Source: Nitrospirota bacterium (GTDB taxonomy: Bacteria; Nitrospirota; Thermodesulfovibrionia; Thermodesulfovibrionales; UBA9159). Taken from it: DNA of 64,000 nt. The translations under genes and the position numbers were made by a program. The stretch spans positions 7,462-71,461 of the forward strand of contig JBBISG010000002.1 of assembly GCA_037441365.1 (NCBI GenBank), in the 5' to 3' direction. Below are positions 694 through 58,804 of the stretch, one piece after another. Below the pieces are notes generated by a model. That model was given only the letters and a program-made list of their open reading frames with translations. It ran no database searches and was not told where the DNA came from. How positions within the stretch are numbered: position 1 is the stretch's first letter; each line of letters starts with the position of its first letter.

Positions 694-1979
694 ACAGGAC
701 ATGGAGTCCAGAAATGGGGTCCCCAGAAAGTCGCAGACTTTCTGGGGCAGAGAGTCAAGTTGCATACCCCTTAGAAATCCACCATTCCCTGTCGATGCAG
801 GGGTGTGGTGAAACCGATGGGATGTCTGGCTCGTGCGGATACCCCAAAAAATCTTCGATTTTTTGGGGACCCCATGGTCTCAGCGATTATGATATAGAGC
901 ATGGAGGCAATATATACAGGGCATCAGAAGAATTGGGCGTGCCCGAAGGCGGCATAATTGATTTCAGCGCATCCATAAACCCCCTCGGCGTTCCCTGGTC
1001 GGTGATCACCGAGGTCATGAACAATATCAGATCGCTGCGCCATTACCCTGACCCCGATGCAAAACGACTCAGGCAGGAGATCGCAAAATACCACAATGTC
1101 GAACCAGAATCAATCGTCTGCGGTAACGGCAGCACCGAATTGATATATCTTATCGTAAGGGCGCTGAGGCCTGATGCTGTTTTAATCCCGGCACCAACAT
1201 TCTCAGAATATGAAAAGGCATGCAGGATGAGTGATAATCGGGTAGTAACGGAGTACAAGCTGAAGAAAGAAGAATCCTTCGATATAAATCCTGACCGGTT
1301 TATCGAAGAATTGAAAAGACTTGCCGCATGCCACTCCTCACCAGGCACTAATATTATGGCGTTTCTCTGCAATCCCAACAACCCTACAGGCAGGCTGCTC
1401 AAAAGATCCGATATAATGAAGATCGCCGATGCCTCAAAAATGCTGAGGTGTTATCTTGTTGTTGACGAGGCATTTGTAGATTTTGCGCCGGAGGAGAGCG
1501 TAATCAAAGATGTCGGGGGAAACCCGTATCTGATCGTCCTTAGATCAATGACAAAGTTTTATGCCCTTGCCGGCCTGAGGCTCGGCTATGGGATATTCCC
1601 ATCAAGCCTTCTGAAGGTCATGCATCAGCATAAGGAACCATGGACGGTAAATACCCTTGCACAGACGGCTGGAATAACTGCAATAAATGACAATGGCTAC
1701 AGAAATGAGACATTCAGAATTATCAGGCAGGAAAAACAGTTCATGGAGAGTGGATTTAAAAAACTCGGGATAGATTATATCCCTTCATCAGTCAATTATT
1801 ATCTGATAAGATCGGGCAATGCAGAGAGGGTGATCACCTCACTCCGCAATAAAGGCATCCTTGTGCGGAAATGTTCCAATTTCTCGGGGCTTGACGAATC
1901 CTACATCAGGGTTGCAGTTAGATCCCGAAGGGATAATGCCCGTTTGCTTAAGGAGTTCTCCTTATGTCTAAAGGCATAG
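690..1979 (+). CDS. cobD: L-threonine-O-3-phosphate decarboxylase (class I/II aminotransferase fold; Salmonella CobD / CobC type). The ~65-aa N-terminal extension contains two palindromic elements
   Basis: HGGNIYRASEELGVPEGGIIDFSASINPLG, NPNNPTG and the PLP-lysine context RSMTKFYALAGLRLGY. ATGA coupling to cbiB supports the 690 start. The catalytic core begins near nt 890. Confidence 0.8.
   Translation: MNRTWSPEMGSPESRRLSGAESQVAYPLEIHHSLSMQGCGETDGMSGSCGYPKKSSIFWGPHGLSDYDIEHGGNIYRASEELGVPEGGIIDFSASINPLGVPWSVITEVMNNIRSLRHYPDPDAKRLRQEIAKYHNVEPESIVCGNGSTELIYLIVRALRPDAVLIPAPTFSEYEKACRMSDNRVVTEYKLKKEESFDINPDRFIEELKRLAACHSSPGTNIMAFLCNPNNPTGRLLKRSDIMKIADASKMLRCYLVVDEAFVDFAPEESVIKDVGGNPYLIVLRSMTKFYALAGLRLGYGIFPSSLLKVMHQHKEPWTVNTLAQTAGITAINDNGYRNETFRIIRQEKQFMESGFKKLGIDYIPSSVNYYLIRSGNAERVITSLRNKGILVRKCSNFSGLDESYIRVAVRSRRDNARLLKEFSLCLKA
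716..750 (+). repeat. P-element copy P1 (palindromic ~35-nt element), inside the cobD 5' region
   Basis: GGGGTCCCCAGAAAGTC-GCA-GACTTTCTGGGGCAG, translated as GSPESRRLSGA. Confidence 0.8.
841..873 (-). repeat. P-element copy P2, opposite orientation, inside the cobD 5' region
   Basis: ACCCCAAAAAATC-TTC-GATTTTTTGGGGACCCC, translated as YPKKSSIFWGP. Confidence 0.85.
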
Positions 1980-3394
1980 TAATAGCAGGCACACATAGCG
2001 GATGCGGGAAGACGACCATAACGCTTGGACTTATGGCTGCCTTAAAGAAAAGAGGGCTGAAGGTCCAGCCGTTCAAGGCAGGTCCTGATTTTATAGACGC
2101 CGGGCTTCACAGGATGGTGACGGGCAGACCTTCAAGGAATCTCGATTTATGGATGTGCGGTGAGGAATATGTGAAGGATTGTTTTTATAAATACTCGCAG
2201 GATGCGGATATGGCGATAATTGAAGGTGTAATGGGAATGTATGACGGCGAATGCAGCACTGCAAAACTGGCAGGACTGCTTAACCTGCCTGTGATTTTAG
2301 TTGTCGATGCCTATGGCATGGCTGAAAGCGCAGGGGCGTTAGTTCAAGGGTTTAGGGATTTGGGATTTGGGATTAGTAAAAAAGCTAACCCCCAGTCCCT
2401 AACCCCTAATCCCTTAGTGGGTGTTATCTTCAACCGTGTTGCATCGGAGAGACATTATGAAAGACTCAAACGCAGTATCCGCAATGTGAAAGTTCTCGGT
2501 TATCTGCCAAGAGACTTGAACTTCGAGATTCCTCACAGGCACCTTGGATTGACCGTTGTAGAAGAGAATCCTCTTGCTGAAGAAAATATGCAAAGGCTTG
2601 CAGACGCAGTTTTGAAGCATATTAATACTGATTTACTTTTAAATATTGCAAGCACACCCCGGCCACTCCACCCCCTTCCCCCTCCGCCCCTGCAGTACTT
2701 CACCGCTTCACCATTAATCGCAGTCGCTTACGACAGGGCATTCAGTTTTTACTACGAGGACAACCTCGATTTGCTGAGAGATGCTGGCGCTGAAATAGTA
2801 GTGTTCAGTCCTATCGCTAATGTATCGGTCCCTGCTGATGCAGATGCCCTTTACATCGGAGGGGGTTATCCTGAGCTTTATGCAAGGGAATTATCTGAAA
2901 ACAGTTCTATGCTTAAGTCTATTAATGAATGGGCAGATTCTAAAAGGCCCATTTATGCTGAATGCGGGGGGCTTATGTATCTGTCAAGGGGCATTTATGA
3001 CCCTGACGGGAACTTTTTCCCGATGGCCGGGATATTCTCCTTTGAAACACGGATGAAAAAAGAGAGGGCACATCTGGGCTACAGGGAGATACTTTTAAAA
3101 GAAGACTGCATACTCGGCAAGAAGGGCGAACGATTAAGGGGGCACGAGTTTCATTATTCGGAGATAGTTGACAACAACTATGAGTCAGGGGTTATGAGTT
3201 ATGAGTTAAAAAACGAAAAGAACTCCAGCCCCCTGAATTGTTACTCGTTACTTCACGGTAATCGTGATGAAGGATATGTATTTAAAAATACCCTTGCAAG
3301 CTATGTGCACGTCCATTTCGGGAGCAACCCATGCATTGCACAGAACTTCGTAAATTTCATATCGCAGGAGAGTAAATGGAAATGGAAAACATAA
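1964..3394 (+). CDS. cbiA: cobyrinate a,c-diamide synthase (CbiA/CobB) with in-frame hairpin-repeat insertions
   Basis: N-terminal P-loop GTHSGCGKTTITLGLMAAL..QPFKAGPDFID. C-terminal glutamine amidotransferase part has YAECGGLMYL and GHEFHYS. Confidence 0.85.
   Translation: MSKGIVIAGTHSGCGKTTITLGLMAALKKRGLKVQPFKAGPDFIDAGLHRMVTGRPSRNLDLWMCGEEYVKDCFYKYSQDADMAIIEGVMGMYDGECSTAKLAGLLNLPVILVVDAYGMAESAGALVQGFRDLGFGISKKANPQSLTPNPLVGVIFNRVASERHYERLKRSIRNVKVLGYLPRDLNFEIPHRHLGLTVVEENPLAEENMQRLADAVLKHINTDLLLNIASTPRPLHPLPPPPLQYFTASPLIAVAYDRAFSFYYEDNLDLLRDAGAEIVVFSPIANVSVPADADALYIGGGYPELYARELSENSSMLKSINEWADSKRPIYAECGGLMYLSRGIYDPDGNFFPMAGIFSFETRMKKERAHLGYREILLKEDCILGKKGERLRGHEFHYSEIVDNNYESGVMSYELKNEKNSSPLNCYSLLHGNRDEGYVFKNTLASYVHVHFGSNPCIAQNFVNFISQESKWKWKT
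2353..2413. repeat. H-element H1: hairpin with heptamer-repeat arms, in-frame in cbiA
   Basis: TAGGGAT TTGGGAT TTGGGAT TAG - loop TAAAAAAG - CTAACCC CCAGTCC CTAACCC CTAATCC C. Translated as DLGFGISKKANPQSLTPNPL. Confidence 0.8.
3179..3265. repeat. H-element H2, in-frame in cbiA
   Basis: Left arm GAGTCAG GGGTTAT GAGTTAT GAGTT. A-rich loop AAAAAACGAAAAG. The right arm contains CCCCTGA and TTACTCG TTACTTC and is imperfectly complementary. Confidence 0.6.
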
Positions 3395-4389
3395 TACTCA
3401 TAGGACACGGCAGCCCCAAAAGAAGTGCAAATAATATTGAACTTGTAGGAAGGCTCTTACATGCTGCAATCCATCCAGATTGCGAGAACGGCTGTGTAAG
3501 GGTTGCGTATCTGCAGTTTGCAGAACCTGATCTTAGAGCCGCCATTAAAGAGAGTGTTCGTGATGGGGCCAGAAGGATAATAATACATCCATACTTTCTG
3601 AGCAGTGGCATGCATGTCACAAAAGACATACCTGAGATAATAAAAGAGGCAAAGGATATGTATCCTGACGCGGAATTTATTTATACAGAGCCTCTTGGTA
3701 TCCACGAAAAATTGGTTCAGGTTATAGCGGAAAGGATTCTATCAGCAAAGGGGTCAGGACCGCAGGACATCGAGAAGAGAAGCTTTGAGATAATCTCAGA
3801 GGAACTCGATTTAAGGAACGTCCCCCCTGAACGGATGCCGATCATAAAGAGGGTGATACACGCAACTGCCGATTTTGAATTCCGCGATACACTCATTTTC
3901 CATCCCGATGCAATAAAGAGTGGCATTGAGTCGATAAGGTCTGGAAAAGATATCCTGACCGATATTGAGATGGTTAAGACCGGAATAATCAAACGGTGGC
4001 TCGAACCCTTTGGCGGAAAGGTAATATGCAATATTAATGACGAGGATGTTATAAGGCTCTCAAAGGAAACAGGAAAGACTCGCTCGGAGATTGCAGTTGA
4101 AAAAGCATTAAATGAAAACAATAGTATTGGCATCATCGCCATTGGCAATGCACCAACAGCCTTACTGAAAGTCGTTGAGATTTTAAGTTCCCACAACACT
4201 CCAATACTCCATCACTCCGTTCCCCTTGTTATCGGCGTGCCTGTCGGTTTTGTTAAGGCATTGGAATCAAAGGTACTGCTCTCGTCACAGAGATTTCCCT
4301 TTATTACAAATCTCAGCAGAAAGGGAGGGACACCGGTTGCAGTCGCAATCGTTAATGCATTATTAAAGATGGCAAAGGAGGAAGCATGA
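3376..4389 (+). CDS. fusion protein: small CbiX-type sirohydrochlorin cobaltochelatase (N-terminal ~125 aa) plus cobalt-precorrin-8 methylmutase CbiC/CobH (C-terminal ~210 aa)
   Basis: N part: ILIGHGSPKRS...RIIIHPYFLSSGMHVTKDIPEII. C part: IIKRVIHATADFEF...IIAIGNAPTALL...VIGVPVGFV...RKGGTPVAVAIVNALL. Confidence 0.75.
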   Translation: MEMENIILIGHGSPKRSANNIELVGRLLHAAIHPDCENGCVRVAYLQFAEPDLRAAIKESVRDGARRIIIHPYFLSSGMHVTKDIPEIIKEAKDMYPDAEFIYTEPLGIHEKLVQVIAERILSAKGSGPQDIEKRSFEIISEELDLRNVPPERMPIIKRVIHATADFEFRDTLIFHPDAIKSGIESIRSGKDILTDIEMVKTGIIKRWLEPFGGKVICNINDEDVIRLSKETGKTRSEIAVEKALNENNSIGIIAIGNAPTALLKVVEILSSHNTPILHHSVPLVIGVPVGFVKALESKVLLSSQRFPFITNLSRKGGTPVAVAIVNALLKMAKEEA

Positions 4390-5144
4390 GAATTAAAGTT
4401 TCAAAGTTCAAGGTTCAAAGTATCTGTACTGCTCTGTTGCTTTTACTTCCTGTCTGTGAGGCCCATGCGATGCACATATCAGAGGGGATACTGCCCTTCG
4501 ACTGGGCAGCGTTGTGGACTGTAATTGCAATCCCATTTGTAGCATACGGACTATATAAGCTAAAGAAGCTCTCTGCCATTGATCTGTCTTTCAAACCCCT
4601 TGTGGGATTGATGGCAGCAGTCGTCTTTATCATCTCCTGCATGCCTATACCTGTGCCGACTGCAGGCACATGCTCACATCCATGCGGAACCGGGATATCA
4701 GGGATACTCGTGGGTCCTGCAATAAGCATATTGATAACTGCTGTTGCCCTTCTAATTCAGGCGCTCTTTCTTGCTCACGGTGGTCTCAGCACATGGGGAG
4801 CGGACATAGTATCAATGGGCGTGATCGGCTCATTTGCAGGATATCTTACCTTCAGGGGATTGAGGGCGTTAAAGGCTAATCTCTGGATTGCAGGCTTCAT
4901 GGCAGGTCTCTTTGCAGACTGGGCAACATATCTGACAACATCTGTTGAACTTGCCTCAGGCATAAAAGGTGATTCGCCGTTCATGCCTCTTTTCTGGAAG
5001 ATACTTATCGCCTTTATACCGACACAGCTTCCATTAGGAATCCTTGAAGGCGCAATGACAGCAGGCATGGTTGTCCTGCTTTATAAGAAAAGACCTGACC
5101 TTCTTGTGAAGATGCGGGTATTAAAGCCAAAGGAGGCGATATGA
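4386..5144 (+). CDS. cbiM: cobalt ECF-type transporter substrate component CbiM
   Basis: Signal peptide ending AHA is followed by MHISEGILP, the conserved mature N-terminus of CbiM. Multiple TM segments. ATGA overlap with the upstream gene. Confidence 0.85.
   Translation: MRIKVSKFKVQSICTALLLLLPVCEAHAMHISEGILPFDWAALWTVIAIPFVAYGLYKLKKLSAIDLSFKPLVGLMAAVVFIISCMPIPVPTAGTCSHPCGTGISGILVGPAISILITAVALLIQALFLAHGGLSTWGADIVSMGVIGSFAGYLTFRGLRALKANLWIAGFMAGLFADWATYLTTSVELASGIKGDSPFMPLFWKILIAFIPTQLPLGILEGAMTAGMVVLLYKKRPDLLVKMRVLKPKEAI
4395..4422. repeat. H-type tandem heptamers (single arm) at the cbiM 5' end
   Basis: AAAGTTT CAAAGTT CAAGGTT CAAAGTA, encoding KVSKFKVQS of the signal-peptide n-region. Confidence 0.6.
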
Positions 5145-5473
5145 AGTTAAAAGTTGAAAGTTTAAAATTTAAAGTTAAAAGTTATGGCGTTATATTTTTG
5201 TTTATTTTTTCATTGTTAGCTGTTCACTGTTCACTTGCAACCGCTGCTGACAAATGGCCTGGTGTTGATGAGTCGGTTGTAGAGAAATACGCAAAAGAGC
5301 ATGGCAGAGAGGCGATGACGCCCTTAATAAACACTGACCAGGGAGACCTCCTTCTCTTTGTCTTCCTGCTTGCAGGCTCTGTTGGCGGTTTTGTAGCAGG
5401 ATACTACTGGAGGGAACTGATAGTCAAAGGACAGCGAGATGATAGTTGCGAAAAACAAAAGATAAAGACATAA
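5141..5473 (+). CDS. cbiN: small membrane component CbiN-like
   Basis: 110 aa with two hydrophobic segments. The loop ...GVDESVVEKYAKEHGREAMTPLINTDQGDLLLFVFLLAGSVGGFVAGYY resembles CbiN. Sits between cbiM and cbiQ. ATGA overlap with cbiM. Confidence 0.65.
   Translation: MKLKVESLKFKVKSYGVIFLFIFSLLAVHCSLATAADKWPGVDESVVEKYAKEHGREAMTPLINTDQGDLLLFVFLLAGSVGGFVAGYYWRELIVKGQRDDSCEKQKIKT
5144..5187. repeat. H-type tandem heptamers (single arm) at the cbiN 5' end
   Basis: GTTAAAA GTTGAAA GTTTAAA ATTTAAA GTTAAAA GTTATGG, encoding KLKVESLKFKVKSYG. Confidence 0.65.
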
Positions 5474-9388: not shown

Positions 9389-10484
9389 AGATCTCCTTTA
9401 TTTCTACAGGTGTGAGGGGGATATTGGGGACATCTCTGTTCCCGGGCAGTGCAAGGACATGTATGAAGCGAGGCCCCGGCGACCTTTTATTTATAGCCTC
9501 TATAAGGTCCCTTTTCGTTGATACCTTTACGGTATTAGAAATTCCAAAACCCCTCGCAACCATCTCAAGGTCTGTACATCTCGCTGTGAGTGTAGGCTGG
9601 TCGCCGGTAGAACCATAAGATCCATTATCAATTGCGACGACACTGAGATTTCCCGGCCTGAGATAGGCCATAGTGCCGAGAGTGCCCGGGTTCATGAGAA
9701 GGCTTCCATCTCCATCAATGACAAGGACATCTCTTTTTGTAAAGAGAGAGATGCCAAGACCAATGGGGGTTGCCATACCCATACTTCCGAGCATGTAGAA
9801 GTTTGAAGGCTGGTGTTTTATATAAAAGAGCTCCTTCGACGGAATGCCGAGATTAGAGACCACTATCTTTTGCCCAAGATAGGGTGCCAGTGTCTCTATG
9901 AGCTCGAAACGCGTGTATCTCGGCACAGGTATTTTCGACTGCTTGATCCTGGGTCCCCTGAATCTTCCATCCCTCGGTCTTTTTAGCTGCTTCTTGATAC
10001 CCCATAGTGCTGGACTCATAAGAAAGACGGATATTTTATGACCTTTATAGACATTCTGCAATTCCTCCCTCACGAGTCTTAAATCACTGTCTTCCCTGAG
10101 GATCAGATATTCAATACCGCATGCCTCAAGTATTCCTAAAAGTGCCCGCCCCATGGGTATCTGGGCAGGTATCCTCTCATTGTCCATCCCACGCCAGCTC
10201 ACGAATATACTCAAAGGTAAATCATAGGTCTTCGTCAGCGACATAATGGCATTTAACATGTTTCCAAGGCCAGAGCTCTGGACAAACATCGCCGGCCTCT
10301 TCCCACAGAGGGCAGCACCTGCACAGATGCCCACGCCTTCCTCTTCCCTTGTCAGGGGAATATGTAAGAAATTGGATTCGATGAGTGAGAGGAGAACATT
10401 GATCTTTTCACACGGAAGTGTTGCGATGGGATCTATCGATGATGCCCTGAGGATCTCTATCATCTGTTCCTCACAGGTTTGCAC
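9354..10484 (-). CDS. fused alpha/beta TPP-dependent decarboxylase of the sulfopyruvate / phosphonopyruvate decarboxylase family (ComDE-like)
   Basis: IDPIATLPCEKINVLLSLI...REEEGVGICAGAALCGKRPAMFVQSSGLGN in the N half. TPP motif region GSMGMATPIGLGI...VIDGDGSLLMNPG in the C half. 376 aa. Confidence 0.7.
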   Translation of the reverse strand: MQTCEEQMIEILRASSIDPIATLPCEKINVLLSLIESNFLHIPLTREEEGVGICAGAALCGKRPAMFVQSSGLGNMLNAIMSLTKTYDLPLSIFVSWRGMDNERIPAQIPMGRALLGILEACGIEYLILREDSDLRLVREELQNVYKGHKISVFLMSPALWGIKKQLKRPRDGRFRGPRIKQSKIPVPRYTRFELIETLAPYLGQKIVVSNLGIPSKELFYIKHQPSNFYMLGSMGMATPIGLGISLFTKRDVLVIDGDGSLLMNPGTLGTMAYLRPGNLSVVAIDNGSYGSTGDQPTLTARCTDLEMVARGFGISNTVKVSTKRDLIEAINKRSPGPRFIHVLALPGNRDVPNIPLTPVEIKEIFSNELCRGESR

Positions 10485-29187: not shown

Positions 29188-30294
29188 GTGGGTGAGGTAA
29201 CAGTGGGTGAATGGATACTGGATAAAAATCATCTCTCATACTGGCTGAGACAGTTAAGAAAAGACAGAGAGCTCATTGGCCCATTAAGGAATGAAGGCAA
29301 GGATATAGTTTTCAGTACTGTTGATAAGATCCACGAGCTTGTTCTTGACTGTCCTGCCTTACTTCCTTCGCCAAAGGAGTTCCTTTTTCCCCAATATGAA
29401 GCCATGCTTAGATATACTCCCAAAAATTTTTTGGGGTCCCCGACAAAGAAAGGCACAGGTATCAGCAGGAAAGCCGTGAATAGTGGTACAGATATCATTG
29501 ACCTGGCGGACAGAAAAGAGAGGGTTGTCTTTGGGATAAGGTCATGTGATATCTCTGCCCTGAGTCTTCTGGACAGATTTTATCTTGAAGGGTACAGAGA
29601 CCTTTATTACGAGCACAGGAGAAAAAATACCCTCTTTATATCAGTAGTCTGCAACAATCCAGACCCTACATGTTTCTGTATTGGCCTCGGAACAGGACCT
29701 TATCTTGAAAAGGGCTTTGATATCCAGATGACTGACCTCGGTGACAGGTATTTTTTACAGACAGACTCTGCTGAAGGAACAAGGACACTTAGGTCCATGG
29801 GTTTTCTTTTTCGAAAGCCTAAGAAACTGGATTATGAAGACCAGTATGAGGTTTTTCTCAGTTCAAAGGCAAGATTCCAGAAAAGGATAAACCTCGAGGG
29901 TATAAGACAGATTATTCTTTCAGGGAGCTTAAAGGATGATTTTTGGGAAAAGGTTGCCCTGAGGTGTTTTGAATGCGGTGGCTGTGTCTATAACTGCCCC
30001 CTCTGCACATGCTTCACTGTGACTGACAGGGAATATACTGAGGGTATTGAGAGGATAAGATTATGGGACACATGCCTTTTTAAGGGATTCACACGAATGG
30101 CAGGGGGATTGCTTCCCAATGAAAGAATGGTTCTCAGAACCAAGAGGTGGTATTATCATAAATTGATTTATTATCCGGAGACACTGGGTGGTTTCGGGTG
30201 CGTTGGTTGCGGCAGGTGCACCATCACCTGTCCCGGGAAAATTGATATGGCCACTATCACAACAAAGATAAAGGGTCTTAGCCTAAATGGATAA
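29188..30294 (+). CDS. 4Fe-4S cluster subunit, AsrA / sulfhydrogenase HydB-like
   Basis: CFECGGCVYNCPLCTCF and CVGCGRCTITCPG motifs. 368 aa. GTG start. Confidence 0.6.
   Translation: MGEVTVGEWILDKNHLSYWLRQLRKDRELIGPLRNEGKDIVFSTVDKIHELVLDCPALLPSPKEFLFPQYEAMLRYTPKNFLGSPTKKGTGISRKAVNSGTDIIDLADRKERVVFGIRSCDISALSLLDRFYLEGYRDLYYEHRRKNTLFISVVCNNPDPTCFCIGLGTGPYLEKGFDIQMTDLGDRYFLQTDSAEGTRTLRSMGFLFRKPKKLDYEDQYEVFLSSKARFQKRINLEGIRQIILSGSLKDDFWEKVALRCFECGGCVYNCPLCTCFTVTDREYTEGIERIRLWDTCLFKGFTRMAGGLLPNERMVLRTKRWYYHKLIYYPETLGGFGCVGCGRCTITCPGKIDMATITTKIKGLSLNG
29418..29441. repeat. P-element-like short variant P3 inside the FeS-subunit gene
   Basis: TCCCAAAAATTTTTTGGGGTCCCC (loop-less palindrome), translated as PKNFLGSP. 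Confidence 0.5.
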
Positions 30295-39539: not shown

Positions 39540-39558
39540 TACCCCCCTATCTTAACGT

Positions 39559-39624
39559 CGGGATTAGGGATTCGGGATTAGGGATTGGGGATTCAGGCCC
39601 GAATTCCGAACTCCGAATGCCGAG
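39559..39624. repeat. H-element H8, intergenic
   Basis: CGGGATT AGGGATT CGGGATT AGGGATT GGGGATT CAGG / CCCGAAT TCCGAAC TCCGAAT GCCGAG. Same GGGATT unit type as H1. Confidence 0.8.
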
Positions 39625-39760
39625 CCCCCTTTTGCCGTAGTCGTTGCATAACTCATTCGGGCAGAAGAAGTCTATCGTCTCTGCTGAAAGTACCATGCAG
39701 ATTTTATATATCAACAGGGCTTCTCATGTCAAGATGCCGAATTGCCTCATTAGGAATCAA

Positions 39761-39796
39761 GGCACCCCAAAAAATCTGCGATTTTTTGGGGTGCCC
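39761..39796. repeat. P-element copy P5, intergenic, 12 nt downstream of the ntrC-like stop
   Basis: GGCACCCCAAAAAATC-TGC-GATTTTTTGGGGTGCC is a perfect 16-bp stem. Confidence 0.9.
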
Positions 39797-39807
39797 TTCT
39801 TTCTCCA

Positions 39808-42640: not shown

Positions 42641-43498
42641 ATGGTAGTAACAATGAAAGAGCTCCTGGAGGCAGGGGTCCATTTTGGCCACCAGGTGAAG
42701 AGATGGAATCCGAAGATGAAGAAATACATCTTCGGCGAGAGAAACGGCATTTACATAATCGACCTTCAGAAGACACTGAAGGGGATTGAAGATGCCTGCA
42801 ATGTCATCAGAGAGGTCGCCATGAAAGGTGCACCAATACTCTTTGTTGGCACCAAGAAACAGGCCCAGGACGCTATCCAGGAGGAGGCGCAGAGGGCAGG
42901 GGCCTTTTATGTAAACCAGAGATGGCTCGGCGGAATGCTGACAAACTTTTTTACCATCAAGAAGAGCATAGAGCGACTCAAGGCCATCGAGAAGATGAGA
43001 GAGGATGGCACCTATGATGCCATATCGAAAAAAGAGGTAGCTATCCTCGAGAAGGAGAGGTCAAAGCTCCAGCGGAATCTAAGCGGTATAAAAGAGATGC
43101 CCGGACTGCCAGGTGCTATATTCGTGGTAGACTCCAAAAAGGAGAGGATCGCTGTTCTTGAGGCAAGAAGGCTCTCCATCCCTGTAGTTGCAGTGGTCGA
43201 CACGAACTGCGACCCTGACGAGGTTGACTATGTTATCCCCGGCAATGATGATGCAATCAGGGCAATAAAGCTGCTGACATCAAAGGTGGCTGATGCTGTT
43301 ATAGAGGGGAAAGAGGCGCTCTCAAAGGCTGCCTCGGCAGAGGCCGAAAAGGCGATGATAGAAGACAAGATCGAGCAGGAAGAGGGCACCCCAAAAAGTC
43401 AAAGACTTTTTGGGGACCCCGGTGAGGCAGAAGTATCTGAGGGGGGCCTTGCAGGGGAGGGGGAATATCACCCGCATACTTCGGAGGTTTCGGCATGA
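42641..43498 (+). CDS. rpsB: 30S ribosomal protein S2 with ~35-aa C-terminal extension containing a palindromic element
   Basis: [51 protein letters not shown] upstream. Confidence 0.95.
43384..43420 (-). repeat. P-element copy P7 inside the rpsB 3' extension
   Basis: GGGCACCCCAAAAAGTC-AAA-GACTTTTTGGGGACCCC, translated as [12 protein letters not shown]. Confidence 0.9.
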
Positions 43499-54567: not shown

Positions 54568-54623
54568 TGGGAAATAGGAAGTAAAATTTGTCTGAAAGTC
54601 TGTCACTTCCCATTTCCCATTTC
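54568..54623. repeat. H-element H10, intergenic
   Basis: TGGGAAATAGGAAGTAAAA - loop - CACTTCCCATTTCCCATTTC. Confidence 0.75.
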
Positions 54624-54629
54624 TTAACC

Positions 54630-54666
54630 GGGGTTCCCAAAAAGTCAAAGACTTTTTGGGGTGCCC
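54630..54666 (+). repeat. P-element copy P10, intergenic, adjacent to hairpin H10
   Basis: GGGGTTCCCAAAAAGTC-AAA-GACTTTTTGGGGTGCCC. Confidence 0.9.
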
Positions 54667-54716: not shown

Positions 54717-57700
54717 TCACCCCTTACACCACTTTCTTGCATTCTGAAACATCTTGAGCCAGGGCGATGCCCTGAGCGTCTTCCAGTCATCGGGCATCCA
54801 CGGCCACTGCCATTTCAAGAATGTCCTCTCTGGATGGGGCATGATAGCGAGGTGTCTTCCGTCAGGCGAGCAAAGGGCCGCAATGCCGAGCGGAGAGCCG
54901 TTTGGATTGAAGGGATAGGATTCTGTAATCCCCCCGCTGTCATCAACGTATCTCACCGGAGCAAGGCCCATCTCTATCACCCTGCCTTTGACCGATTCGT
55001 CGGGGAAATATGCCCTCCCCTCACCATGCGCCACCCAGATGCCAAGGGTCGAGCCCTCCATGCCCTTAAGCATAATGGATGGGCTCGGTAAAATCTTTAC
55101 TGTGGCGAATCTCGATTCAAAGCGGCCTGACCTGTTCTGGATAAACCTCGGCTGCAATCTGTCCTCTATTCCTGTCCACGGCACCCAGCCCAGGAGGGCC
55201 ATCAGCTGGCATCCATTGCATACACCGAGGCTGAAGGTCTCATCCCTGCTGTAGAATCTTTCGAACTGCTCATATATTCTCTTATTGAACCTTATTACCC
55301 CTGCCCACCCCTTTGCCGAATCGAGGACATCTGCATAGCTGAACCCTCCAACAAAGGCGATGCCCTTAAAATCATCGAGGGATATATCCCCTCTGAGAAG
55401 GTCAGTCATTGTGACATCCCATGTCTCGAATCCTGCTTGATAAAAGGCTCCCGCCATCTCCCTGTCGCCATTACTGCCCTCTTCCCTTATGATCGCAACC
55501 CTCGGCTTTGTCCTTCGAGTGATGATTTCGGGTGCTGTTGGCTCGGGCGTGAATGTAAGCCTATATGATGGCCCCTTCCTGTCAAAGATATTCTTCCACT
55601 CCTCATCAACACAGTCAGGGTCTGCCTGCAATCTGTCGAGGCGGTAGCTCGTCTCCTCCCACGATGCCCTCAGATGCTGCATCTCTTCATCTAAAACCGT
55701 AATGCGCGAAGAAGGGCACCCCAAAAAATCTGCGATTTTTTGGGGACCCCGGTTGTGATGCGTGATAAGATTTATTTTTATTCTTTTTTCTATCAGTGTC
55801 CTGCCGATGAACTGATAAGGGACAGAGAAGCCTCTGACAATAGAAATTATCTCGTCTTCTTTCTCTGGCATGTATTCCATCACTAACCCCGATTCCTCGG
55901 AAAACAGTATTCGTATTGTCTCCTCCCCTGACTCCTGACTCCTGACTCCTGACTCCAAACTTATCTCCAATCCACAGTTTCCAGAAAACGCCATCTCCAG
56001 GAGTGCAACGATCAGTCCGCCGTCACTTATGTCGTGCCCGGAGAGGATGAGGTCATCTTCAATGAGTCTCTGGACTGCTAAGAATGTGCGCCTCAGTAAC
56101 TGTGGGTCTTCTATATCTGGAGACTCATCGCCAATCTGGTTGTAAACATGGGCGAGTGCAGAGCCTCCGAGTCTGTATCTGCCTTTCCCGAGGTCGATAT
56201 ACAGGAGCCTGCTATGGCCCGGCCTCTTTATATCAGGGGTGACGACCTTTGTTATGTCAGGACATGTGGCATAGGCTGAGATAACGAGTGCACCAGGGGC
56301 CTTAACAACCTCCCTGTCACCATTAACCCCCTGCACCATGGCTGCCATAGAGAGGCTATCCTTTCCACCATCTACCGCTATGCCGAGCTCTATCATAATG
56401 TCCCTCAAGGCTTCGGCTGCATCATAAAGGGCGGCACCCTCGCCGGGCAGCTTCGCTGCCCACATCCAGTTAGCAGAACACCTGATGTCCTCAAGTCTGC
56501 TCACCTTTGCCCAGAGGATATTTGTGATGGCCTCGGCCACGGCCATCCGCGCCATTGCTGCTGGGCTTATGAGGCCCTTGATAGGCTGCTCTCCTATAGA
56601 TATCGCTGCACCTGTAAAGACTCCATCTGAAGGGAAATGGCTTTGAGAAATGACCGCCACATCAGAGACAGTAAGCTGTAGAGGGCCGACGCACTGCTGC
56701 CTTGCTATCAGACCCGTCACAGACCTGTCGACCTTATTCGTGAGAAACCGTTTTGAGCCGACGGACACAAGCCTCAAGACCCTCTCAAGGGCATCCTTTA
56801 CATTCAGGGCATCAGGCAGTCTTAGCGGTTCAAGCTGAGGGGGGATTCTATCGAGCCTGAAGGTCTTCTGCGGCATCTCGCCAAGGACCTTTCTGAGGTC
56901 GAGATTGACAGGGGTGCTTCCATCACTTTCATCATAGAGGACTATATAGCCGTCACCTGTTATATGGCCGACTGTAGCAGAGGGAACCTTCTCCCTCCTG
57001 CACAACTCTGTGAACATCTCCGCACTTTCAGGTCTTATCAGAAGGGCATTGGATTCCTGATACTCAGCGCCCCATATCTCAAGGACAGAAAGGGTGTTGT
57101 CTCCAAGAGGTATCTTTCTCACCTCTATCTTTGCTCCAGCAGGGTATATTATCTCCTTTATGACATTGCAATTGCCGCCCGCACCCTGGTCATGGATGCT
57201 TATTATCGGGTTTTCGTCACCGAGCTCTACGCATGCACGGATGACCCTGTTGAGCTTTTGCTCCATCTCAGCATCGCCCCGCTGCACTGCATTGAAGTCG
57301 AGTTCCTCTGACAGCTCACCAGCAAGCACAGATGACGCAGATCCGCCGCCTATACCGATTCTATATGCAGGACCGCCCACCTTAACAACGAGCATCCCCT
57401 TGTCAGGCATCCCCTTTTCTGTATGTCTTTCATCCATCTGGCCTACACCGCCTGTGAACATTATAGGCTTTATCCATTCCCTCCTCTGGCCATTGGGAAG
57501 CCTCATGCCAAAAGACCTTGTAAAGCCCTGTATTACAGGCTCCCCAAATTTATTCCCATAGTCTGATGCCCCGTTGCTTGATTCTATCTCTATCTGGAGG
57601 GGGGATGCAAGGTTTCCTGGGTAACCAAAGGAGCCGTCTTCCCACGGGAGTCTGTAGCCGGGTATCCTGAGGTTGCCGACACAGTATGCAGCAGTGCCTG

Positions 57701-58799
57701 CTATCACAAGACCTCCCCTCCCAACGGCCTGTATATCCCTTATCCTCCCCCCTGTCCCTGTCTCTGCACCCGGAAATGGTGCTACACCAGTTGGAAAGTT
57801 GTGCGTCTCTGCAGTGAATATAATGTGGTATGTCGGAGACCTCTCGATGAACGGGGACGGCCTGCCAGGCCTTTCAGGGATAATGGTCTTAATCCTGTAT
57901 CCCCTTATCGCAGAAGAGTTGTCTTTAAAGGCTATTATGCTGTTATTGGGATTCTTTTTATAGGGCTCCTTTATGAGCTCCATAAGGGTAGCAGCGGCCT
58001 CTTTCCCATCTATGATAAGCCTCCCCTTAAAGAACCAGTGCCTTGAGTGTTCGCTGTTTGACTGACCGAGGTCAAAGCACTCAACATCTGTTGGGTTTCT
58101 CCTCAGGTCATTGACAAAGAGATTATAATAGTAGTCGATATCCCATTTATCAAATCCGAGGCCGAGCTCCCTGTTTATCCTCTCAATTGCTGCCCTGCCC
58201 TCTTCGATGACCTTAACCTCATACACAGGTTCAGGCCTGAGCCCTGTCTCAAAGGTCTCGAGCCTTTCAGGATAGAGGCATTCAGTCATTTTGTCAAAGA
58301 AGAGTGATAAGTGATGAGTGATGAGTGATGAGTAAAAATCATTTACACTCGTTACCCTTGACGCATCACGTATTACGAACTTATATCTCCTTGAGCGTTC
58401 AATACGGCTTATCTTCTTTAATCCACAGGCATGACATACGGAGACCGCATTCGTTGACCATGCGGTTGTGAAGTTCATCCTCGGGCCGACCTCAAGAACA
58501 GAGCTAAGAGCACAGAGCCCAGAACTCAGACTGTCTTTATCTGTGCTCTGTGTTCTGTGTTCTGTGTTCTGAATGAAGAAGCTTTCATCCGAGAAATTCT
58601 CGGGCTCGAAGGTCTCACGGAGGAGCCATTCCAGAACCCCGATCTCTTCAGGGAGAAGGGGATCCGAATCGATGTAAAAACAGTACTCTGTCTCGATATC
58701 CTCTATACCGGCGGAGACCCTCTCTCTCAATACGGACAGGAGGTTCTTCTTCTTTGTCTCGGAGAGGGCAGGGACCCTGTATCTGTAGATTAAAGGCAA
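54717..58799 (-). CDS. purL: phosphoribosylformylglycinamidine synthase, single-chain large PurL, with several in-frame repeat insertions
   Basis: 1360 aa. ETHNFPTGVAPFPGAETGTGGRIRD, the DxG-containing FGAM synthetase domains, and a C-terminal triad glutaminase (GVCNGCQ...HGEG). Confidence 0.95.
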   Translation of the reverse strand: MPLIYRYRVPALSETKKKNLLSVLRERVSAGIEDIETEYCFYIDSDPLLPEEIGVLEWLLRETFEPENFSDESFFIQNTEHRTQSTDKDSLSSGLCALSSVLEVGPRMNFTTAWSTNAVSVCHACGLKKISRIERSRRYKFVIRDASRVTSVNDFYSSLITHHLSLFFDKMTECLYPERLETFETGLRPEPVYEVKVIEEGRAAIERINRELGLGFDKWDIDYYYNLFVNDLRRNPTDVECFDLGQSNSEHSRHWFFKGRLIIDGKEAAATLMELIKEPYKKNPNNSIIAFKDNSSAIRGYRIKTIIPERPGRPSPFIERSPTYHIIFTAETHNFPTGVAPFPGAETGTGGRIRDIQAVGRGGLVIAGTAAYCVGNLRIPGYRLPWEDGSFGYPGNLASPLQIEIESSNGASDYGNKFGEPVIQGFTRSFGMRLPNGQRREWIKPIMFTGGVGQMDERHTEKGMPDKGMLVVKVGGPAYRIGIGGGSASSVLAGELSEELDFNAVQRGDAEMEQKLNRVIRACVELGDENPIISIHDQGAGGNCNVIKEIIYPAGAKIEVRKIPLGDNTLSVLEIWGAEYQESNALLIRPESAEMFTELCRREKVPSATVGHITGDGYIVLYDESDGSTPVNLDLRKVLGEMPQKTFRLDRIPPQLEPLRLPDALNVKDALERVLRLVSVGSKRFLTNKVDRSVTGLIARQQCVGPLQLTVSDVAVISQSHFPSDGVFTGAAISIGEQPIKGLISPAAMARMAVAEAITNILWAKVSRLEDIRCSANWMWAAKLPGEGAALYDAAEALRDIMIELGIAVDGGKDSLSMAAMVQGVNGDREVVKAPGALVISAYATCPDITKVVTPDIKRPGHSRLLYIDLGKGRYRLGGSALAHVYNQIGDESPDIEDPQLLRRTFLAVQRLIEDDLILSGHDISDGGLIVALLEMAFSGNCGLEISLESGVRSQESGEETIRILFSEESGLVMEYMPEKEDEIISIVRGFSVPYQFIGRTLIEKRIKINLITHHNRGPQKIADFLGCPSSRITVLDEEMQHLRASWEETSYRLDRLQADPDCVDEEWKNIFDRKGPSYRLTFTPEPTAPEIITRRTKPRVAIIREEGSNGDREMAGAFYQAGFETWDVTMTDLLRGDISLDDFKGIAFVGGFSYADVLDSAKGWAGVIRFNKRIYEQFERFYSRDETFSLGVCNGCQLMALLGWVPWTGIEDRLQPRFIQNRSGRFESRFATVKILPSPSIMLKGMEGSTLGIWVAHGEGRAYFPDESVKGRVIEMGLAPVRYVDDSGGITESYPFNPNGSPLGIAALCSPDGRHLAIMPHPERTFLKWQWPWMPDDWKTLRASPWLKMFQNARKWCKG
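55715..55751 (-). repeat. P-element copy P11 inside purL
   Basis: GGGCACCCCAAAAAATC-TGC-GATTTTTTGGGGACCCC. On the coding strand it is translated as RGPQKIADFLGCPSS. Confidence 0.9.
55928..55956. repeat. tandem heptamer run (CTGACTC x4) in-frame in purL
   Basis: CTGACTCCTGACTCCTGACTCCTGACTCC. The coding strand is translated as GVRSQESGEE. The complementary arm is not clearly retained. Confidence 0.6.
58302..58376. repeat. H-element H12, in-frame in purL
   Basis: GAGTGAT AAGTGAT GAGTGAT GAGTGAT GAGT - AAAAATCATTTA - CACTCGT TACCCTT GACGCAT CACGTAT TAC. Confidence 0.8.
58507..58571. repeat. H-element H13, in-frame in purL
   Basis: AGAGCAC AGAGCCC AGAACTC AGAC - TGTCTTTAT - CTGTGCT CTGTGTT CTGTGTT CTGTGTT CTG. 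The coding strand is translated as QNTEHRTQSTDKDSLSSGLCALSS. Confidence 0.85.
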
Positions 58800-58804
58800 T
58801 CCTG

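Follow-up and report, generated by a model that had tools for sequence, protein, structure and literature searches.

In-frame heptamer arrays and a palindromic insertion at probable permissive sites of purL in a Nitrospirota bacterium

Palindromic DNA that is read as part of a protein has been described in Rickettsia, where the Rickettsia palindromic elements (RPEs), of ~100-150 bp, lie in-frame within genes (Ogata et al, 2000, as summarised in PMC10969869). Among long simple sequence repeats, those of seven nucleotides are in many bacteria the most frequent class, with polymerase slippage as a proposed origin; the published arrays are overwhelmingly intergenic, units that are not a multiple of three being rare in coding DNA (PMC4692102, PMC4679880). 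Among the examples quoted in those papers are the short tandemly repeated repetitive (STRR) sequences of cyanobacteria, the GGGAATC-type repeats of Xanthomonas and Nostoc and the TAACTGA repeats of Beggiatoaceae (PMC4692102, PMC4679880; Mrazek, 2007, as cited there). Repetitive extragenic palindromic (REP) elements and REPINs, which are found with REP-associated tyrosine transposases (RAYTs), are known as well, REPs being extragenic by definition (PMC3116915), and the tandem repeats of Borgs create disordered regions in proteins, the units within open reading frames (ORFs) being multiples of three (PMC9879509). Here we analyse purL, which encodes the large single-chain formylglycinamidine ribonucleotide (FGAM) synthase, in a stretch of 64,000 nucleotides from an uncultured Nitrospirota bacterium of the order Thermodesulfovibrionales (assembly GCA_037441365.1, contig JBBISG010000002.1), referred to below as the window. 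The gene carries heptamer arrays and a 42-nt palindrome within its reading frame. It would seem likely that these inserts are repeat DNA that selection has filtered to permissive sites, comparable to the RPEs and to the cyanobacterial STRRs.

The gene and the features within it are given below, with positions in the window.

54717-58799, minus strand: purL, large single-chain FGAM synthase of 1360 aa, an uninterrupted ORF that hosts all of the repeats on the following lines.
58498-58571, minus strand: H13, a heptamer-array hairpin, with a 5′ arm (sense) of (CAGAACA)x4.6 at 58540-58571, a loop at 58524-58539 and a 3′ arm of (TCTGNGC)x3.7 at 58498-58523.
58302-58369, minus strand: H12, with a 3′ arm of (CATCACT)x4.6 at 58302-58333, encoding SSLITHHLSLF, and a 5′ arm that is a degenerate complement at ~58346-58369, encoding RDASRVTS.
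55927-55956, minus strand: GAGTCAG array, x4.3 with 100% matches, encoding ESGVRSQESG; hot spot C, in a modelled beta-alpha loop.
55711-55752, minus strand: P11, a 42-nt stop-free palindromic insertion, ACCGGGGT-CCCCAAAAAATC-GCA-GATTTTTTGGGG-TGCCCTTC, encoding (N)RGPQKIADFLGCPS.
55755-55769, minus strand: CTTATCACGCATCAC (LITHH), a degenerate heptamer remnant of hot spot D that immediately precedes P11 on the sense strand and is probably older than it.
56622-56633, minus strand: a non-repetitive 12-nt lineage-specific insertion (SDGV) in the PurM_N-like region, absent from the two nearest relatives, L081 and L082.

An earlier sequence-only reading had placed H13, H12, the GAGTCAG array and P11 in frame within a 1360-aa PurL, and recomputing the positions and re-translating the ORF returned the same arrangement and the same peptide coordinates. 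H13 encodes aa 77-100 (peptide QNTEHRTQSTDKDSLSSGLCALSS), the H12 peptide SVNDFYSSLITHHLSLF occupies aa 151-167, GVRSQESGEE from the GAGTCAG array is aa 951-960 and the P11-encoded RGPQKIADFLGCPSS is aa 1017-1031. Three of the four had also been taken to be hairpins at the level of the nucleic acid, as proves to be the case: H13 (-31.8 kcal/mol, z = -3.2), H12 (z = -2.8) and P11 (z = -4.1) fold better as RNA than shuffled sequences, and the GAGTCAG array, as a local hairpin, folds no better than shuffles (z = -1.1). The arms of H13 are 16 nt apart and imperfect (81% complementary), the degraded complementary arm of H12 lies ~13 nt upstream of the CATCACT array in the sense strand, and the 17+17 nt arms of P11 (55714-55730 and 55734-55750) are 88% complementary about a loop of 3 nt. 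No Rfam family reaches its gathering threshold anywhere in the 64-kb window.

The host gene is intact. Its product aligns over the full length with human PFAS (9N9W, E = 0) and Salmonella PurL (1T3T, E = 4e-269), and in a Pfam scan all five domains of the large PurL are above cut-off (PF18076, PF18072, PF02769, PF22689 and PF13507, covering FGAR-AT_N, linker, AIRS_C, PurM_N-like and GATase_5), giving the five-part architecture of N-terminal domain, linker, two PurM-like halves and C-terminal triad glutaminase. The glutaminase motifs GVCNGCQ and MPHPER are present and are invariant across an alignment of 57 sequences; following the literature on StPurL, we take these to be the catalytic nucleophile and His/Glu motifs. 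The ratio of nonsynonymous to synonymous substitution (dN/dS) between the purL copy of the window (WIN) and comparison loci, which are numbered with the prefix L, is 0.126 for L081, 0.088 for L082 and 0.054 for L001. Because all five Pfam domains are present and dN/dS against the nearest relative is 0.13, purL is, as judged from its sequence, a working gene under purifying selection and not a pseudogene. An identical PurL protein is recorded on an 86-kb NCBI contig, and the nearest relatives are metagenome-assembled genomes (MAGs) of Thermodesulfovibrionales/Nitrospirota. The stop codon of purB is separated from the start of purL by 5 nt in the window (58800-58804). In L081 this spacer is 136 nt (L081 ~9875-10000) and holds another small repeat, GTCACCCTGAACTTGTTTCAGGGTC.

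Comparison with the two nearest relatives, L081 (P0002/L081; 91% nucleotide identity) and L082 (77%), separates old from more recent features. Relative to L081, WIN has insertions of 54 nt at H13, of 42 nt exactly at P11 and of 12 nt at ~56622-56633, and the P11 site is empty in both L081 and L082, the gap being 42 nt and coinciding exactly with P11. Across 8.9 kb of synteny with the relative, three indels lie in purL (4.1 kb) and none in the 4.8 kb of the three genes next to it. WIN and L081 have the CATCACT and GAGTCAG arrays in common, with diverged forms in homologues of 68-80% identity; a diverged GAGTCAG array is seen in L082 and others, and CATCACT/H12 also in ~20 other lineages. By these alignments the CATCACT and GAGTCAG arrays are old and shared by the clade, whereas H13 and P11 are absent from the closest relative. 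The sequence-only reading had counted four separate repeat insertions: on the comparison with L081 this stands for H13 and P11, and not for the two arrays that L081 shares. At the same site the distant L057, at 68% aa identity, has the two-armed H13 element nearly unchanged and L008 has the 5′ arm of the element, and site A of L081 resembles a half-deleted copy of a palindrome with poly-C and poly-G arms.

Heptamer arrays exceed chance in the window as a whole. Period 7 accounts for six exact tandem runs of 2.5 units or more, where shuffles have none, the other periods from 5 to 12 giving ~0-2, and three of the six fall in purL, which makes up 6.4% of the window (binomial p = 0.0045). To the purL of the window were added 82 further loci, making a clade set of 83 Nitrospirota-type purL genes, in which Tandem Repeats Finder returned 103 rows of period 7, 50 of period 8, 16 of period 14 and few of any other period. 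The arrays fall in hot spots at aa 75-100, 140-166, 625-666, 824, 946-960 and 1010-1035 (WIN numbering), occupied by different types of element in different lineages. The units vary by lineage (ACTCATC, ACGCATC, ACTCGTC, CAGAACA, GGAGTCA, CTCCGAA, TCAGAAG, TTCACCCA and others), and the copy number per array is typically 4.0-4.9. All 83 homologues keep the frame through their arrays; 36 of the 83 loci have none, nor does any member from outside Nitrospirota. The sequence-only reading had described four insertions in one gene; the arrangement is not particular to this copy of purL but recurs across the clade, and there is a fifth repeat-derived piece, LITHH. The H13, CATCACT and GGAGTCA arrays were not found outside purL in 202 loci and the window. 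The poly-C/poly-G palindromes constitute a second family (poly-C...TTT-loop-AAA...poly-G, peptide PPxPPFxKGGxxG), often nested in or beside heptamer arrays at the purL hot spots A, B and C of L022, L035, L049, L059, L007, L012, L034 and L062.

Array lengths change in discrete steps. Site A measures 12 aa in 11 loci and 19 aa in 22 (+21 nt, three heptamers), with 20 aa in 5 loci that carry octamers (+24 nt). Site D is bimodal, 46 loci having 14 aa and 30 having 19 aa, and the 33 aa of WIN equal 19 + 14. The AACGCTC repeat has two units in L018 and five in L017. Codon identity at identical residues, compared between lineages, is 0.39-0.47 for the gene as a whole and rises to 0.9-1.0 inside the CATCACT array (Fisher p 2e-4 to 0.01).

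The positions of the inserts in the protein were judged from alignment and from a predicted structure. The sequence-only reading had attributed ~65 extra residues mainly to these loci, and the alignment to 1T3T and 9N9W accounts for ~55-60 of them, each insert falling at an alignment gap of Salmonella PurL and human PFAS: ~+19 aa before the first alignable residue (chain residue 80) at the H13 site, then +11 aa for H12, +6 aa for the GAGTCAG array and +19 aa where P11 lies. Measured against the shortest forms of the clade the excess is 21 + 8 + 6-8 + 19 aa, plus the 4-aa non-repeat insertion. An AlphaFold2 model of aa 1-1200 (mean pLDDT, the predicted local confidence score, 65.9) was used solely for the local picture at the inserts. 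In it H13 (78-98) has no secondary structure and pLDDT <50, and lies in the connector of the N-terminal domain, between its two beta-alpha-beta-alpha halves. The model places the GAGTCAG array (953-956), as coil with pLDDT <50, in a beta-alpha loop, and P11 (1016-1029), also coil with pLDDT <50, at the turn from strand 1006-1013 to strand 1031-1039. For SSLITHHLSLF, the right arm of H12, it gives a helix (152-162) that replaces the helix preceding the conserved HDRMTE motif, so that, as far as the model goes, this arm is not a loop insert. The prediction of loops or linkers is thus borne out in the model for H13, the GAGTCAG array and P11 but not for the right arm of H12. As evidence against itself the same reading had named inserts in the catalytic core or in buried strands and extra length spread evenly along the chain; neither is seen.

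P11 belongs to a dispersed family with the consensus GAAGAGGGCA-CCCCAAAAARTC-NNN-GAYTTTTTGGGG-ACCCCGGT, the form of the element, ~42-45 nt, being GGGCA-CCCCAAAAARTC-loop-GAYTTTTTGGGG-ACCCCGG with no stop codon in any of the six frames. The palindrome core occurs 5-6 times in the window and not once in 100 shuffles, and there are six family copies in the 64 kb. Four of the six lie inside ORFs, namely purL, the tail of rpsB, a family-2 glycosyltransferase (GT2) and the N-terminal part of an aminotransferase, although the copy in the aminotransferase ORF may be upstream of the true start codon. No member was found in the 82 related purL loci (~740 kb), so that plain descent from an ancestor in common with the nearest sequenced relatives does not account for the family. 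It is present in at least 120 metagenome contigs, many copies having the same asymmetric GGGCA...ACCCC ends. Among the matches listed, 13 of 66 distinct copies are inside ORFs of at least 150 aa, where they are read in three frames, all stop-free, giving the peptides GPQKVxDFLGCP, GTPKSQxLFG and PKKSKxFWG. One contig, L103 (Ga0190286_1000148), has copies within its 23S and 5S rRNA genes, at 1792-1818 and ~4313-4353; the 23S match is 3173 nt against a model of 2925 nt and the 5S 158 nt against 120 nt, the 5S insertion lying between ...CCCGGAAG and TTAAGCCC... Features of an RPE-like element are therefore found together, in a multi-copy dispersed palindrome that is stop-free, lies in ORFs without breaking the frame and has both a filled and an empty site. 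From this distribution of sequences the P11 element behaves as a mobile or dispersed hairpin.

The copy at 43384-43420, within rpsB (42641-43498), encodes part of the tail in which ribosomal protein S2 ends, C-terminal to its Pfam S2 domain (aa 8-223). In L087-L189, contigs from hot-spring and other metagenomes, a P11-type hairpin is at the core of a multi-copy composite repeat of ~150 nt, ...GCTCAGGACAGCGCTTCGGGGCAGGGCA-hairpin-ACCCCGCATTAAGCCCCTCAGAATGAC..., whose flanks vary between copies.

These results are most readily explained if a working purL has accumulated two kinds of short repeat DNA, both of them translated. The heptamer arrays, often paired with a complementary array to give a hairpin, would grow and shrink, most likely by replication slippage. 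As seven is not a multiple of three, it takes three units (21 nt) to make one seven-residue peptide repeat; only units that are stop-free in all three frames and length changes of three units would survive in an ORF, which would lead to the steps of 21 nt and the typical 4-5 copies. Since every base of the unit falls in turn at the first, second and third codon position, an array that has been homogenised has no silent site, and synonymous conservation would follow without any function of the RNA. The degraded arm of H12 can be understood in the same way, because the perfect complement GATGAGT contains a TGA stop, the arms observed being GATGCGT or similar. The second kind, the P11 hairpin, might be recognised by a transposase acting on single-stranded DNA. 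Purifying selection would then leave only in-frame copies at a few permissive places. Besides a beta-alpha loop and the turn of a beta-hairpin shortly before the glutaminase domain, these would be the end of the N-terminal domain and the linker within it, between its two halves. Confinement to so few sites would give hot spots that recur throughout the clade, where different elements turn over and become nested, and the peptides themselves would presumably be neutral.

Several observations weigh against this explanation. The density of arrays is ~4x higher in purL than in its flanks (0.46 vs 0.11 per kb) and arrays are found in no other long gene of the window, an enrichment that a pure 'tolerance filter' does not obviously predict. 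The CATCACT unit is kept in lineages whose synonymous sites are saturated, which could reflect direct selection on the nucleotide sequence. The presence of nearly the same H13 element in WIN and L057 and its absence from L081 require repeated homing or insertion, or else loss. A miniature inverted-repeat transposable element (MITE) has terminal inverted repeats, a target-site duplication and a related autonomous insertion sequence. The whole of P11 is one hairpin, there is no clear or convincing target-site duplication at the purL site, and no transposase, parent insertion sequence or second filled/empty pair was found; the argument for mobility is drawn from one empty site in the alignments and from contrasts in copy number. 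The AlphaFold2 model is only moderate, its low confidence reaching conserved core segments too, and the inserts are presumed from the ORF to be translated.

The enrichment in purL and the location of the hot spots at subdomain junctions would also fit arrays and hairpins kept by selection on the nucleic acid, as mRNA or DNA structures or through opposite-sense pairing (A with B-left, C with D), acting on translation speed, co-translational folding, mRNA stability or protein binding. We regard this as unlikely, even though the synonymous sites of the CATCACT array are conserved far beyond the gene-wide level, since the frame-cycling constraint accounts for that conservation without an RNA function. 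The sense of the array is constant at each site, purine-rich GAGT-type at B-left and C and ACTC-type at A, B-right and D, and the duplex energies of cognate pairs beat those of non-cognate pairs (p = 0.0011 for C-D and p = 0.011 for A-B-left). The cognate excess, though, is seen in all opposite-sense pairs of sites, which fits co-occurrence of arrays by lineage and not specific pairing, and a unit-level permutation test of C-D covariation is not significant (p = 0.20). We do not claim that covariation, the duplex-energy contrast being significant but the unit-level test being the cleaner of the two. Arrays are, moreover, missing in 36 of 83 loci, site D is short in 46 of 83, and the arms within ORFs are degraded relative to perfect complements (81% in H13). 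Improbable too, in our estimation, is a wider reading in which either the heptamer arrays are a nucleotide-level feature kept at the subdomain junctions of purL across the Thermodesulfovibrionia-type clade, controlling translation or co-translational folding by opposite-sense pairing across conserved segments or through a heptamer-reading protein, or the arrays and the 42-nt hairpin belong to a class of mobile element so far unrecognised, ultra-small and compatible with coding, which homes to existing repeats in proteins and rRNAs.

Selection could instead act on the encoded peptides, as new linkers, disordered segments or an amphipathic helix of seven-residue periodicity that alters domain communication in PurL or the binding of partners. 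A 7-nt repeat necessarily gives a periodicity of seven residues (two turns), in the model a helix formed by the right arm of H12 stands in for the native one before HDRMTE, with SSLITHHSSLF conserved in ~20 lineages, and disordered regions created by tandem repeats are documented in Borgs (PMC9879509). Such a role nevertheless seems quite unlikely: unit and peptide sequences at one site vary widely by lineage, many relatives lack them, H13 and P11 are absent from the 91%-identical L081, and, as evidence against a function tied to one peptide, the P11-type palindrome takes three different reading frames from host to host and is found also in rRNAs and intergenic DNA. Gain or loss of one or two heptamer units would shift the frame, and the source is a metagenome-assembled genome, so that purL might be a slippage-driven on/off contingency locus, a decaying pseudogene or an artefact of assembly. 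Each of these is very unlikely indeed, given the intact 4.1-kb ORF with dN/dS 0.13, the identical protein on the 86-kb contig record, the recurrence of two arrays in the independent assembly L081 and the frame kept in all 83 homologues; pseudogene and artefact were rejected on dN/dS and the independent assembly. Contingency loci are typically surface or restriction-type genes, unlike purL, a housekeeping biosynthetic gene. Repeat DNA filtered to permissive sites is accordingly the explanation that we favour.

Other repeats are found in the window, the nearest being just beyond the 3′ end of purL.

54568-54661, no strand assigned: two repeats in the intergenic DNA that follows purL, a TGGGAAA/TTCCCAT heptamer hairpin with its arms at 54568-54582 and 54605-54619 and, at 54635-54661, a second copy of the P11-type palindrome.

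An intergenic cluster at 39558-39804, between convergent or divergent genes, has a heptamer hairpin of (GGGATTA)x4.9 with (CCGAATT)x3.6 and, at 39752-39804, the most symmetrical copy of the P11-type palindrome. A CobB/CbiA-type ORF (cobyrinic acid a,c-diamide synthase-like) at 1964-3394 has, in frame, a heptamer hairpin at 2355-2414, in which (GGGATTT)n has a partner arm of CCCTAAC type, and at 3179-3208 an array of TATGAGT, these arrays lying within its CbiA and GATase_3 domain matches. Heptamer arrays of AAGGTTC, and of AAGTTAA with a TTCACTG partner, are at 4396-4418 and 5144-5235, at the start of the ORFs 4386-5144 and 5141-5473, and may be upstream of the true start codons rather than coding. 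A short loop-less palindrome resembling the P11 core, ACTCCCAAAAATTTTTTGGGGT, is at 29416-29437 inside the ORF 29188-30294.

If the inserts are indeed filtered repeat DNA, selfish DNA within protein genes, best known in Rickettsia, would extend to free-living anaerobic Nitrospirota, and the phenomenon would take in 7-nt tandem arrays, which the literature treats as essentially intergenic. As far as we found, translated in-gene repeats of the Rickettsia kind have not been described for this phylum, and a search of the literature for heptamer repeats in Thermodesulfovibrio or Thermodesulfovibrionia gave nothing relevant. Across the clade, purL would serve as a natural experiment on the insertion-tolerant loops of a large multi-domain enzyme, on non-triplet repeats under a frame constraint, with their three-unit steps and frame-cycled 'silent' sites, and on the spread of tiny hairpin elements into proteins and even rRNAs. 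In practice the inserts inflate protein lengths and add spurious low-complexity segments to the annotations of MAGs.

Set against the known systems, P11 resembles the RPEs as a dispersed palindrome that lies in-frame in unrelated housekeeping genes, is read as an extra peptide compatible with the fold and occurs also in non-coding DNA. It differs in its length (42-45 nt against ~100-150 bp), in its host phylum, Nitrospirota, in being read in three frames and in being found inside 5S and 23S rRNA genes, and it has no sequence relationship to the RPEs; P11 acts in the manner of an RPE without belonging to those families. With REP/REPIN elements and the Nostoc small dispersed repeats it shares imperfect palindromes of 20-45 nt, many copies and an asymmetric stem, and nesting is seen as in those repeats, P11 being beside the heptamer remnant and the poly-C/poly-G palindrome inside arrays. 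The 'small dispersed repeats' of Nostoc are reportedly very short multi-copy palindromes, a description ascribed to Elhai and colleagues in 2008. Unlike REPs, four of the six P11 copies are in ORFs and all are single, with no REPIN doublet, and no RAYT gene was seen in the window, which was not scanned exhaustively for one; the P11 family is not a classical extragenic REP. The purL arrays resemble bacterial heptanucleotide repeats in their few units, several unit sequences, occasional inverted stem-loop pairs and excess of period 7. They have the head-to-tail 7-nt units in at least three copies and the genome-level period-7 excess of an STRR, but are not predominantly intergenic, since those of purL and CobB lie within ORFs; even so, the 5% of the window that is non-coding holds about a third of its arrays. 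STRRs are said, from work by Vioque in 1997, to occur also inside the RNase P RNA gene of heterocystous cyanobacteria. From the published heptamers the purL arrays differ in lying within a conserved essential ORF, in hot spots that recur across the clade, in their age, in their 21-nt steps and in their synonymous conservation. Like the Borg repeats, they are tandem DNA within ORFs that adds low-complexity and probably disordered peptide to conserved proteins, and unlike them they have a unit of 7 nt, sometimes 8, which cycles through all three frames.

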